NCBI GenBank assembly: GCA_000004695.1
Contig: CM000150.2
Span: forward strand, 1,280,001-1,344,000
Source: Dictyostelium discoideum
Taxonomy: Eukaryota
DNA: 64,000 nucleotides
Reading direction: 5' to 3'
Under the pieces are notes generated by a model that did not search any database, was not told the origin of the DNA, and saw only the letters and a list, made by a program, of their open reading frames with translations. Position 1 is the stretch's first letter; every line of letters begins with the position of its first letter. The translations under genes and the position numbers were made by a program. Shown here piece after piece: positions 15,307-19,499 of the stretch.

Positions 15307-18300
15307 TTAATGAACACCTCTACTTGAAAGTGTTTTAAATAAATTATATTCTTTTCTTTTTTTAATAATAAAAAATATAACTGTACCAATAATACAAACA
15401 CCAACAACACTTGAAACAACTGCAACTGGAATAACATATGATGCTCTTTTACCATCATCATCATCACATGAAGTTTGGAAATCTGAATTAATTAAAACTG
15501 AAAAATCTATTTTTTTTTTTTTTTTTTTTTTTTTTTTTTTTCTTAATTAAAAAAATAAATAAATTAATAATTTAAATTAATTATTTAAAATAATAATAAT
15601 TATAATAATAATAATAAAAAAAAAACTTACCAGGATCAATAATACAATTATTACAATGTGGTAAATTTAAACCAATTATAATTGAATTTAAATTTTTTGA
15701 AACAATTTCAGATGTAATTGTTGTTGGTTTACCATCAGATAAAATTCTATTTAAAAATCTAGCTTGAAGAGTTTTTGAATCTTTTTGAATATTAATAAAA
15801 TTTAATAATTCCATTTGATCATCATCATCTCCTGTATTATTAATTGTTGAATCTTTTGTATTAAAATCTTTTTCATCATTTAATGAAACCGATGATTCAA
15901 ATTGGATTTGTAAATTATTAATTGATGATAAATATGGATAATTTTGAATTGATAATGAAATTTTAACTGAACCTTTATCTAAATTAAAATTATAACCAGC
16001 AAATGTATAATTCTTTTCATTTTGAATCTCTTCAATCATATAAGAAACTGTGAATGATGTACTTGATCCAGTTGGTGTAATAATTTGATTGAATATATAA
16101 ACATTACTTGAACTTTGATTATAATTCCAATTTTTCAATAATGAAAATGAACGAATTGTTTTACCATTTATATCCATTTCTAATAATTGTGGTATTGAAA
16201 TTTGATAATTTGTTTTATCATTAACAATTGATGTTGTACCATTATTATTATTAACAGTTGTACTTGTTGGTGGTATTTGACTACCACCACCATTATTATT
16301 ATTACTATTTGGATTAAATGGTGAACTACAATCATTACCATACCAACCAGAATTACAATTACATGAACCAGTTGTTGTATCACAAATACCATTGGTTTTA
16401 TTTGTACAACCATTTAAACATTTTAAAATTTCTGGATTTAAAATATATGATTTTGGTCCAACCCATGTAATATTATTTTGAATAATTGTAACATCAATTA
16501 TACCTGGTTTTAATTGACCAATTAAACATATAATTGTATTATTAGTAATTGATGAAACATTACATTGTTGATTTGAAATTAATACCATTAAATTATCATT
16601 AATATCACCAAACCAACCACCAATTGTAACATTACCACCTGATGCTGGTGCAGTTATAAATGATGACGCATATTGATTTGCTAGAGTACAATTTTGACCA
16701 CTATATTCAACATTACAAATACACCATCCATTTGGTTCATCACAAGTGCCTCTACCAGAACAACTTGGTTCAGGACAATAACTTTGACAAACACCAATTT
16801 GATAATCACAATATCCTGGACATGTACCACATGAAATTACTGGATTAATTAATAAATCATTACGAATTGTAAAATTTTGATTTAATCCATTAATTGTAAT
16901 TGAAACTTTAATATAATTTAATGGCAAATTTGGATATTTTAATTGTTGATAATTTTTAATTAATTGATTATTCAAATTATTTGATATTATTGTACAATTC
17001 ATTCTTGAATAAGAAATATCAATATTTTTATAAAAATTACATTTTTCATTATTAATTTCAATATTTGTTATTGAATAATTATAACCAAAATTTGAACCAG
17101 AAAATGAATATGAAATATTAGAATTTGAATTTACATTTGAATTTACAATTGTAACTAATGGTGGTGTTGGATCAACTGGGAATGTAAAATTATATTTACC
17201 ACTATAATGTTCAAGTGATAAAATTTTTGGATATGGTTCAGTTGGATCATATTCACAACTAAATAACAAATTTGGAATTAATAAATTACAAATGAAAAAA
17301 TTTTTTGAACTTTGTGGAATTAGGAATGGAAAACTATCAAATCCTAGTGACGTTCCAAAAATATATAAATAACCTTCATCTTTATTTAAATATATATTTG
17401 GTACCATTGAATAACATTCTTCATCATCATTAAAATTTGTTAATCCTGGATTTCCATTAAAATTATAATGAATACTTGGCCATGAACATTTAAAACAATT
17501 TGGAATTTTACCACTTAATAAATTATAACTAACATTTAAATAAACTCCACAATATTCTTCACCAATTGTACCTGTTATACCATTATAATTAATTGTTCTT
17601 TTTTTTTTTTTTTTTTTTTTTTTTTATATTAATATATAAAATTAAATTTTTTTAAAATGAAAAAATATAAAAAAAATACATACAAAGATTGAATATTTGT
17701 TTTGAAAGGGTTAAATGATGGTAAATTTGTATTAATACTATTATTTATTAAAACAACTGAATTAAATTGATCAAATTCATTTAAATTATTAAAATTTGGT
17801 AATTCACCATCAACATAAATACTTTTTTTTTTTTTTTTTAAAAAAAATTATAAATAAAAAATTAATATTAATATCAATTAAATTATGTATTTTTTAAGTA
17901 TTAATAGTAATACACTTACAATCCTGATACTGATCTTTGAAAGTTGAAAGGTTTTAAATCATTTTTAGAATTATTTATAAATTTTTGGTAACTATCATGG
18001 ATTTCAATTACTTGTAAATTAGTTAAACCAGAGAAAGAGTAATTAGTTGGTATAAAATCAAAATTACATGAAATTAACGAAATTCCATAAGTATTTGAAT
18101 TTTTAATTTGATTTAAAGGAGCAAATTGTAAATTATTTCCATTACATAGTAAAGAACTATTAATGATTAAAAAAAAAATTAATATTATTTATTATTATTT
18201 ATTATTATTTATTATTATTTATTATTATTATTATTATTATTATTATTATTATTATTATTATTATTATTATTATTATTATTATTATTATTATTATTATTAT

Positions 18301-19499
18301 TATTATTATTATTATTATTATTATTATTATTATTATTATTATTATTATTATTATTATTTATAATATTAAAATATTCTTACAAGTAATTAACATATATGAA
18401 TGTATTTAAATTATTATAGTTAGGAGTTTGAGAAAAAAAACTATTTATTGATAGAGTCAAACCATCAACATGAAAGTTAGTTAAGTCTGGTATATTATTT
18501 ACAGTAACATAAAATAGTTCAATAACTTCAGAGTTTGTAGATAAAAGATCATTATTTACCCCAATATTTAATAAATTAGTATTATCTTTTTCTAAAAGAG
18601 AACTTTAGTTTTAAAAAAAAAAATTAATAAATAAAGGTTTAAATATAAAATAAAATAAAATTACTTTACTTACAACAATGTTAATGAAGTAAACTGGGAA
18701 AGGTCTAAAGTTAAAGTCAAAGGAATAGTTTCTTGATTGATAACAACTCTATTTGATATTAAACCAGATAATCCTAATAATTTACAATCATTCAAAGTTC
18801 TAAAAAATTATTATTATTATTATTATTATTATTATTATTATTATTATTATTATTATTATTATTATTATTATTTTATTTTTTTTTATTTTTATTTTTATTT
18901 TTTTTAATTATCATTATATTTTAGTAAAATGGTTAATAATTAATTTTTTTTTTTGGAAAAAAAAAAAAAATACTTACAACTGAAACGAAACCACACATAT
19001 TTCTGATACAAAATTATTATCAACAGAGAAACCTTTTAATGTTACTTCAGAAAGTTTTAAAAGATTTTTTAAATCACTACCAGTTAATATATAAGCACTA
19101 TTAACTGTATTCTCATAATTGCTATGGGAATTATTAATAAATATTAGTTTTTTTAAAATTATAATTTTTTTTAAAAAAAAAAAAAAAATACCAACATATT
19201 TAATAAAATATTTTCACCAGAAGTTGAATCAGTAAAACAGGTAAAACTTGTTGTGTTACAAAAATCAATATAGTTGAGTGAAGAGTCAATTGGAAATAAA
19301 CTTGATTGTCCAGTATTAAGGGTCAAATTAACCAAAATATCATCTTAAAATTTTTTATAAAAAAAAAAAGTAAATGTTTGTTAAAATAATGAAAAAAAAA
19401 AAAAAATTACTTACACTCAAAATCAACCAATTTTTGACTTTTACTAAATTGAAACAAAAATAGAACAAATAAAAAACAAAAAAAATTTGTGTATTTCAT
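15307..19499 (-). CDS. Secreted type I membrane protein with N-terminal signal peptide, leucine-rich repeats, Cys-rich EGF-like modules, one TM helix and a short cytoplasmic tail. At least 8 exons. Reconstructed exons on the minus strand are 19499..19415 (MKYTNFFCFLFVLFLFQFSKSQKLVDFE), about 19330..19172, about 19120..18960, about 18760..18595, about 18585..18378, about 18160..17884 (boundaries approximate), 17821..17684, 17597..15631 (large exon) and 15482..15307 (TM + tail).
   Basis: The signal peptide exon ends at a GTAAGT donor. The middle exons encode LRR-like units (...LTNLQVIEIHDSYQ..., ...NLLSGKIPNCFKCSWP..., ...LSGLISNRVVINQ...). The large exon has EGF-like Cys patterns (CGTCPGYCDYQIGVCQSYCPEPSCSGRGTCDEPNGWCICNVEYSGQNC; CLNGCTNKTNGICDTTTGSCNCNSGWYGNDC) and many N-glycosylation sequons. 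The last exon encodes ...CDDDDGKRASYVIPVAVVSSVVGVCIIGTVIFFIIKKRKEYNLFKTLSSRGVH*. Junction phases are consistent across every exon I reconstructed. Confidence 0.7.
18175..18358. repeat. (ATT)n/(TTA)n microsatellite of about 180 bp in an intron of the LRR-EGF gene. Similar tracts occur at 18805-18880 (same gene), 13030-13115 (SET gene intron), 41650-41800 (HDAC intron), 63370-63520 and 63820-63945 (intergenic).
   Basis: Perfect trinucleotide periodicity is visible in the sequence. The tracts sit between reconstructed exons or in intergenic DNA. Confidence 0.95.

Follow-up and report, generated by a model that had tools for sequence, protein, structure and literature searches.

The 64,000-nucleotide stretch of Dictyostelium discoideum DNA analyzed here (contig CM000150.2, positions 1,280,001–1,344,000; hereafter the window) contains, at positions 15307–19499 of its minus strand, a 4,193-nt gene made of nine exons and eight GT..AG introns. 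Once the reverse complement is read and the introns are joined, an uninterrupted open reading frame (ORF) of 1,088 codons runs from the A of the ATG at 19499 to the last base of the TAA stop at 15307. A previous reading of the bare sequence (the original prediction) had proposed a 4.2-kb gene of at least eight exons with exactly these ends. The spliced protein is that of XP_647489.1 (UniProt Q55FP4), the hypothetical protein DDB_G0268420 of D. discoideum AX4, except for 12 residues that are spliced out in the AX4 model. Most probably, the locus is a single nine-exon gene, DDB_G0268420, whose product is a glycoprotein of type I membrane topology that belongs to the dictyostelid ComC family and would act in communication. 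DDB_G0268420 is already annotated, as an uncharacterized member of a known family, and its novelty is low. The gene is therefore little news as a discovery, and the main value of the present check is to show that the reconstruction of a nine-exon gene from the bare sequence had been essentially right.

The gene model is supported by comparative evidence, which here stands in for transcripts. In a diverged D. discoideum strain (L001), all eight introns are found at the same places with GT..AG borders, and the exons, 93–99% identical, carry in-frame indels only. The introns themselves vary in length between AX4 and this strain (71 and 76, 74 and 102, 178 and 301, 71 and 105, 224 and 93, 98 and 81, 86 and 74, and 124 and 89 nt for introns 1–8, respectively). 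D. citrinum (86% identity) and D. firmibasis (73% identity) share the residues at the junctions. The exon 2/3 junction admits two in-frame solutions. Variant A (TTG/GTATTT ... TGAG/AAT) also keeps the frame open, but it was rejected in favor of variant B, which reads NINYEN: all annotated and orthologue models use B, and the conservation with D. firmibasis begins exactly at acceptor B, intron 2 of this species being diverged up to the acceptor and the sequence identical after it. Because genes of a related species average 1.96 introns (PMC13487327), eight introns are far above the norm, as originally claimed; within the family, however, a high intron count is a shared trait, a paralogue having nine. 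Exon 8, of 1,967 nt, is the predicted 655-codon exon. The small exons measure 85–237 nt and are not the micro-exons that they had been called.

The C-terminal half of the protein is readily assigned by Pfam. The ComC supersandwich domain (ComC_SSD, PF22933) matches residues 808–1025 with 186.5 bits against a cut-off of 24 (E = 7.2e-55), over the entire profile (positions 1–222 of 222). Upstream of it, EGF-like modules flank a single IPT/TIG domain: EGF_2 at residues 639–668 (25.4 bits, cut-off 22.1), IPT/TIG at residues 682–742 (28.2 bits, cut-off 20.9), and EGF_Teneurin at residues 767–790 (24.9 bits, cut-off 24.3). The EGF-like modules of the original prediction are thus present. The metazoan EGF arrays remain below their cut-offs (EGF_TEN, PF25024, 21 bits against 65; EGF_Tenascin, PF18720, 19.7 bits against 25), and only single generic EGF-like modules pass. 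That inventory of domains was also incomplete, as the ComC supersandwich, the IPT/TIG domain, and a beta-sandwich region had been missed. The beta-sandwich region (PF24142/PF24143) gives no Pfam match; it is all-beta in the predicted structure at residues ~433–614 and colinear with the paralogue P0004 (PF24143 at 515–597), but the identity there is low.

Two hydrophobic segments define the topology, in agreement with the signal peptide and the transmembrane helix with a tail of about 20 residues originally described. The N-terminal core FFCFLFVLFLF (mean Kyte-Doolittle hydropathy 3.17 over 11 residues), followed by SKS/Q, is signal-peptide-like. The transmembrane helix spans residues 1047–1069 and precedes a basic tail of 19 residues, IKKRKEYNLFKTLSSRGVH, with no catalytic domain according to Pfam. 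Windows of 19 residues with a mean hydropathy above 2 occur only at 1044–1071; a further window, at residue 721 within the TIG domain, is marginal (1.64). The juxtamembrane motif LNLPHCxxCxIDPDFSVL, at residues 1010–1027 (window 15493–15670, spanning intron 8), is near invariant in the ComC family, and a phase-1 intron, also kept in a paralogue only 30% identical, interrupts it between P and D. We counted 21 N-x-S/T sequons in the whole protein, 16 of them in the big exon, and not more than 25 as had been stated. This number follows from an Asn content of 14% and does not exceed chance, the shuffled sequence giving 26.4 ± 4.3.

The original prediction had distributed leucine-rich repeat (LRR) units over the small exons. 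Although Pfam misses it, the LRR domain holds as a genuine feature of the DDB_G0268420 orthologue group, judging from the orthologue profile, the homology within the family, and the AlphaFold model. The orthologue profile, compared with solved ectodomains of plant LRR receptors (MIK2, GSO1, PSKR1, and others), matched at best with E = 2e-17 over profile positions ~317–436. With the search filters off, the N-terminal 409 residues alone gave a colinear match to 91 of 161 family members; under the default filters of hmmsearch, only four are retrieved, as the composition-bias filter removes Asn-rich proteins. One of the proteins matched by this N-terminal profile is P0004 (151–427, E = 1e-13), where the match overlaps that of Pfam LRR_ComC (PF24141) at 90–380. 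Among 26 full-length relatives, Pfam detects LRR_ComC in 17, the second ComC beta-sandwich PF24143 in 13, PF24142 in 4, and ComC_SSD in 25.

The AlphaFold model, computed from a 26-sequence alignment, has a mean predicted local distance difference test (pLDDT) score of 76.6, with values of 80–94 over most of residues 30–430. It replaces an earlier model built on four sequences (mean pLDDT 39.5), which was discarded. The predicted N-terminal domain is a curved solenoid of about 15 LRRs, the last units of which carry the plant-type pattern LxxLxLxxNxLxGxIP ("LTINYNGITGTIGEEYC", "LNVSYNLLSGKIPNCF"). Most repeats are irregular, with 17–29 residues, and only the C-terminal few are regular plant-type units. 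The best structural matches of the modeled LRR domain include Toll-like receptors (TLRs) and the plant pattern-recognition LRR proteins TMM and PGIP. When the family alignment was run against a named database, all matches were plant LRR proteins, including EIX2-type receptor-like proteins (RLPs). The coordinates of the exons, introns, and domains are given in table 1.

Table 1. Exons, introns, and encoded features of DDB_G0268420 (positions in the 64,000-nt window).
Feature	Position	Strand	Content or support
Exon 1, 85 nt	19415..19499	-	ATG at 19499; signal peptide, residues 1-21 (19437-19499); ends in phase 1; start common to all orthologue models
Intron 1, 71 nt, GTAAGT..AG, phase 1	19344..19414	-	Same alignment column and phase in the 30%-identical paralogue
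Exon 2, 148 nt	19196..19343	-	N-terminal cap and first LRR units; 3' end set by donor GTTGGT
Intron 2, 74 nt, phase 2	19122..19195	-	Acceptor is the start of D. firmibasis conservation
Exon 3, 144 nt, symmetric 2-2	18978..19121	-	LRR units
Intron 3, 178 nt, phase 2	18800..18977	-	Holds trinucleotide array 18807-18917
Exon 4, 126 nt, symmetric 2-2	18674..18799	-	LRR units
Intron 4, 71 nt, phase 2	18603..18673	-	Strain comparison
Exon 5, 222 nt, symmetric 2-2	18381..18602	-	LRR units
Intron 5, 224 nt, phase 2	18157..18380	-	Holds array 18178-18358
Exon 6, 237 nt, symmetric 2-2	17920..18156	-	LRR units
Intron 6, 98 nt, phase 2	17822..17919	-	Strain comparison
Exon 7, 138 nt, symmetric 2-2	17684..17821	-	LRR units
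Intron 7, 86 nt, phase 2	17598..17683	-	Same column and phase in paralogue P0004
Exon 8, 1,967 nt (~655 codons)	15631..17597	-	Pfam matches, structure model
Exon 8: last plant-type LRR units and cap	to 17408	-	
Exon 8: beta-sandwich region	16844-17407	-	
Exon 8: first EGF-like module	16682-16843	-	
Exon 8: IPT/TIG	16430-16681	-	
Exon 8: second EGF-like module	16313-16429	-	
Exon 8: most of ComC supersandwich domain	from 16276	-	
Intron 8, 124 nt, phase 1	15507..15630	-	Splits family-conserved motif IDP/DF; same column and phase in paralogue P0004
Exon 9, 200 nt	15307..15506	-	Supersandwich end, juxtamembrane motif, stalk, transmembrane helix, tail, stop
Exon 9: transmembrane helix	15367-15435	-	
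Exon 9: 19-aa tail IKKRKEYNLFKTLSSRGVH	15310-15366	-	
Exon 9: TAA stop	15307-15309	-	

Two anomalies concern the AX4 reference. The AX4 annotation (1,076 aa) splices out 36 nt at 15352..15387 (minus strand) that encode GTVIFFIIKKRK, that is, half of the transmembrane helix and the stop-transfer lysines. D. citrinum and D. firmibasis conserve this peptide, and the models of other strains keep it. From this conservation, the 36-nt AX4 "intron" is very likely an annotation artifact and really coding sequence. The model of another strain, P0007 (1,181 aa), reads past the stop via a different 3' splice. Furthermore, codon 945 (15863..15865, minus strand) is TTT (Phe) in AX4, while each of the 25 aligned family members with a residue at this position has Cys. 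The other D. discoideum strains also encode Cys, by TGT in L001, and so does P0007, which matches AX4 apart from its mis-modeled 3' end. Cys945 is one of four conserved cysteines, and without it the conserved cysteines of the AX4 supersandwich/stalk region are odd in number. Phe945 is due to a mutation in the laboratory strain or else to an error in the reference, and it matters to anyone using AX4 to study DDB_G0268420.

The search for paralogues advised in the original prediction revealed a large family. When 1.84 billion representatives were searched exhaustively with a profile, 247 cluster representatives were returned at E ≤ 1e-30. Many of them are colinear with DDB_G0268420 from residue 1 to ~1,080, and others share only the EGF-TIG-EGF-supersandwich-transmembrane half, located behind longer EGF arrays. 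The representatives whose names were looked up are dictyostelid in 20 cases out of 20 (D. discoideum, D. citrinum, D. firmibasis, D. dimigraforme, D. purpureum, and Cavenderia), and a named-database search with the supersandwich domain only gave five matches, among them an Acytostelium protein. This lineage is therefore rich in LRR plus EGF ectodomains, and the architecture is not the unusual one that it had been taken for. The family is already described in Pfam, by curated ComC-specific domain models.

The closest AX4 paralogue is DDB_G0279859 (Q54W81). Together with comC, this gene, and DDB_G0289863 (Q54GX9), DDB_G0268420 shares a signal peptide, ComC-type LRRs, EGF and IPT/TIG domains, the supersandwich, the juxtamembrane Cys motif, a transmembrane helix, a short tail, and perhaps the beta-sandwiches, as well as a gene structure of many introns, in phase 2 where they lie in the LRR region, and a distribution limited to Dictyostelia among the named matches. 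It differs by an identity of only ~30% to the paralogues examined and by LRR and beta-sandwich regions too diverged for direct detection by the Pfam ComC models. Many relatives, presumably including comC, also have many more EGF repeats than DDB_G0268420 and reach 1,300–1,760 aa or more. The ComC family is among the larger sets of dictyostelid surface proteins and its functional study is worthwhile, although this locus offers no special entry point. Some members are tandem neighbors: P0004 (D. dimigraforme, L003 1–7261) lies directly downstream of another family member of 1,141 aa, and a DDB_G0279859-type paralogue occupies the adjacent locus tags ACTFIR_008497/008498 in another D. discoideum strain. 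The 64-kb window contains no ComC-family paralogue of DDB_G0268420.

The LRR region has a regular exon organization. Introns 2–7 are all in phase 2, and the exons between them (144, 126, 222, 237, and 138 nt) are all multiples of three. Each of these introns interrupts the codon for a hydrophobic residue, the first of an LxxLxL strand, and the six split codons all fall inside predicted beta-strands. The 30%-identical paralogue has nine introns, in phases 1, 2, 2, 2, 2, 2, 2, 1, and 1. Its first intron, its last, and the one preceding the big exon, three in all, occupy identical alignment columns; the others have the same repeat-relative position in different repeats. This arrangement fits an LRR array that grew and was remodeled as cassettes were duplicated or lost, an inference and not a demonstration. 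LRR introns at one repeat-relative position and in one phase bear on the question of how LRR arrays grow.

We compared AX4 with the diverged strain at the coding level, as raw blastn comparisons were swamped by AT-rich sequence and AAT repeats. In a protein-guided codon alignment, the ratio of nonsynonymous to synonymous substitutions (dN/dS) is 0.33 overall. By domain, it is 0.29 in the LRRs, 0.29 in the beta-sandwiches, 0 in the EGF modules, which are invariant, 0.28 in TIG, and 0.82 in the supersandwich, the last value resting on only four synonymous changes. The dS of the gene is 0.062, compared with 0.07–0.09 in the flanking genes, whose dN/dS lies between 0.09 and 0.16. A dN/dS of 0.54 obtained earlier for the big exon, together with two absurd values for neighboring genes, was due to codon-registration artifacts of tblastn gaps and was abandoned in favor of the value of 0.33 from the codon alignment. 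Given the dN/dS of 0.33, the invariant EGF modules, and a dS like that of the neighbors, the codon comparison indicates that the gene is functional, under purifying selection, and faster evolving than its housekeeping neighbors.

These values bear on the possibility that the locus is not one intact gene, the LRR exons being a separate gene or a remnant, or the AX4 copy a pseudogene. Such a reading could invoke the AX4 Phe at a Cys invariant among the aligned family members and the different 3' ends of the AX4 and ACTFIT annotations. It is nevertheless scarcely credible. The frame is open through all eight junctions, the junction residues are conserved in three species, the exon indels are in frame, and the LRR exons are themselves under purifying selection. 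Moreover, the order from LRR to supersandwich in one polypeptide is the norm in the family, and intron 7, which connects the small exons to the big one, is common to a distant paralogue. The two outcomes that the original prediction had named as refuting it, LRR exons in a separate gene or out of frame, thus find no support, and one missense substitution is not enough to call a pseudogene.

The strain comparison also addresses a resemblance to TgrB1/TgrC1. Like DDB_G0268420, these are Dictyostelium type I surface glycoproteins with IPT/TIG domains, and they act in developmental cell-cell contact. Kibler et al. (2003, cited in PMC4404348) reportedly described comC in the same paper on this adhesion and communication pathway. 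DDB_G0268420 could by this likeness be a polymorphic self/non-self (kin) recognition protein under diversifying or balancing selection, all the more as the strains differ at 4–6% of residues and as the first rough dN/dS of the big exon, later recognized as an artifact, was high. We consider this very improbable and reject hyper-polymorphism. Neither the domain dN/dS values of the codon alignment, which culminate in the poorly sampled 0.82 of the supersandwich, nor the dS relative to the flanking genes carries a signature of diversifying or balancing selection between AX4 and this one diverged strain. A dS not above that of the flanking genes reflects the genome-wide divergence of that isolate and not a diversity specific to the locus. 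In addition, DDB_G0268420 has one TIG domain where the Tgr proteins have many, and it has LRR, EGF, and supersandwich domains that they lack.

A type I protein with LRRs, EGF-like modules, a transmembrane helix, and a short tail can reasonably be read as a cell-surface adhesion or recognition receptor, as had been suggested. With the LRR solenoid as its binding surface, it would contact a peptide or protein located in the matrix or on another cell, and the EGF, TIG, and sandwich domains would serve as rigid spacers. With only 19 cytosolic residues, the protein cannot be expected to signal alone. It would instead work through partner membrane proteins, either as a co-receptor or as a subunit for adhesion or recognition. 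Plant kinase-less LRR receptor-like proteins likewise act through partner proteins. By analogy with comC, the founding member of the family, which encodes a protein with a signal peptide plus transmembrane and EGF domains (PMC4931340, Table 3) and whose mutant shows aberrant aggregation (PMC2873529, Table 1), DDB_G0268420 probably has a role in developmental cell-cell communication; the phenotype of comC makes this our best guess.

The main rival proposal is that DDB_G0268420 is not a developmental protein but a sensor of bacteria or other environmental ligands, acting in innate immunity or prey recognition in the manner of TLRs or plant RLPs. Its ectodomain is dominated by LRRs, and, as described above, the structural matches include TLRs, TMM, and PGIP, and the family profile pulls EIX2-type proteins of plants. 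The short kinase-less tail is typical of plant RLPs that signal through partners, and the dN/dS, at 0.33, exceeds that of the housekeeping neighbors by a factor of two to four. Yet fold matches of LRRs are uninformative on the ligand, the protein has neither a TIR nor a kinase domain, no domain has a dN/dS above 1, and comC, the only characterized member known to us, has a developmental phenotype (PMC2873529). On balance, we find the sensor proposal unlikely. DDB_G0268420 resembles plant receptors in working principle and not in family membership. With the kinase-less RLPs (TOO MANY MOUTHS, EIX2-type) and the LRR kinases (BRI1, PSKR1, HAESA, MIK2), it has in common the extracellular LRR solenoid with a plant-type signature in the last units and the matches in sequence and fold; with the RLPs, it also has in common the single transmembrane helix and the very short tail, implying signaling via partners. 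Unlike plant LRR receptors, this amoebozoan protein matches neither the LRRNT_2 cap (PF08263) nor a kinase in Pfam, and its LRR domain precedes EGF, TIG, and supersandwich domains that plant receptors do not have.

Several points weigh against the assignment to the ComC family with a communication role. The Pfam LRR_ComC and ComC beta-sandwich models have no direct match in DDB_G0268420 at E ≤ 1, these domains being assigned via paralogues and the structure model, and the signal peptide and transmembrane helix were called from hydropathy alone. The link to comC was made through the naming of Pfam domains and not by direct alignment, and the ligand and the developmental action are deduced purely by analogy. 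The identifier DDB_G0268420 occurs in no paper of the searchable literature. Finally, the AX4 allele, devoid of the Cys945 that is invariant among the aligned family members, may be impaired.

In the predicted structure, the supersandwich domain resembles the luminal domain of GLMP (glycosylated lysosomal membrane protein), an accessory subunit of the MFSD1 transporter. The identity is 8–10%, and GLMP differs in being lysosomal and in having no LRR, EGF, or TIG domain. This likeness is one of fold only, in a predicted model, and it is a lead and not evidence of a shared function. A bolder scheme, which we hold to be distinctly improbable as a whole, would make the ComC-family proteins the amoebozoan counterpart of the plant kinase-less LRR-RLPs. 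The LRR would capture a ligand, the GLMP-like supersandwich, the transmembrane helix, and the tail would dock a multi-pass signaling partner, the phase-2 cassettes would permit the number of repeats to change by duplication, loss, or exon skipping, and the AX4 allele would be crippled by the Cys945Phe change. Usable by-products of the analysis are the correction of the AX4 splice in the transmembrane helix, the missing Cys945, the LRR domain undetected by Pfam, the position of the LRR introns, and the likeness to GLMP.

Two introns had been described as almost pure (ATT)n. The two arrays are real, but they fill ~81% of intron 5 and ~62% of intron 3, so that the wording was somewhat generous. 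The intron 5 array (18178–18358) comprises 59 copies according to Tandem Repeats Finder (TRF), with 94% matches and a longest pure run of 46 units. The intron 3 array (18807–18917), (AAT)n on the gene strand, comprises ~38 copies with a longest pure run of 22 units. Both vary widely. At the intron 5 position, three units are found in the 93-nt intron of strain L001 and ~49 units in D. citrinum, and the intron 3 array has 22 units in AX4, 41 in another strain, 104 in D. citrinum, and 70 in D. firmibasis. In D. firmibasis (L004 3592–3801), the gene strand reads (ATT)70, the complement of the (AAT)n of D. discoideum and D. citrinum, and this opposite-strand motif at the same intron suggests repeated independent expansion. 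A functional, conserved microsatellite is ruled out by the varying length of the arrays, the near absence of one of them in one strain, and the opposite-strand motif of D. firmibasis. As the 64-kb window contains 19 pure AAT/ATT runs of at least eight units, ten of which have at least 22, two arrays in a 4.2-kb gene correspond to the background. They are ordinary unstable microsatellites for this genome.

The window as a whole has a G+C content of 13–33% in 2-kb blocks and is rich in A/T runs and AAT repeats. No tRNA gene (ARAGORN) and no Rfam family (gathering threshold) was found across its 64 kb. The upstream neighbor of DDB_G0268420, at 22705–23853 on the minus strand, is of response-regulator type according to its D. 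citrinum orthologue. It is the most diverged of the neighbors, with 91% amino acid identity and a dN/dS of ~0.31. Its long ORF contains a 31-unit AAT/ATT run (22972–23064), presumably a poly-Asn tract.

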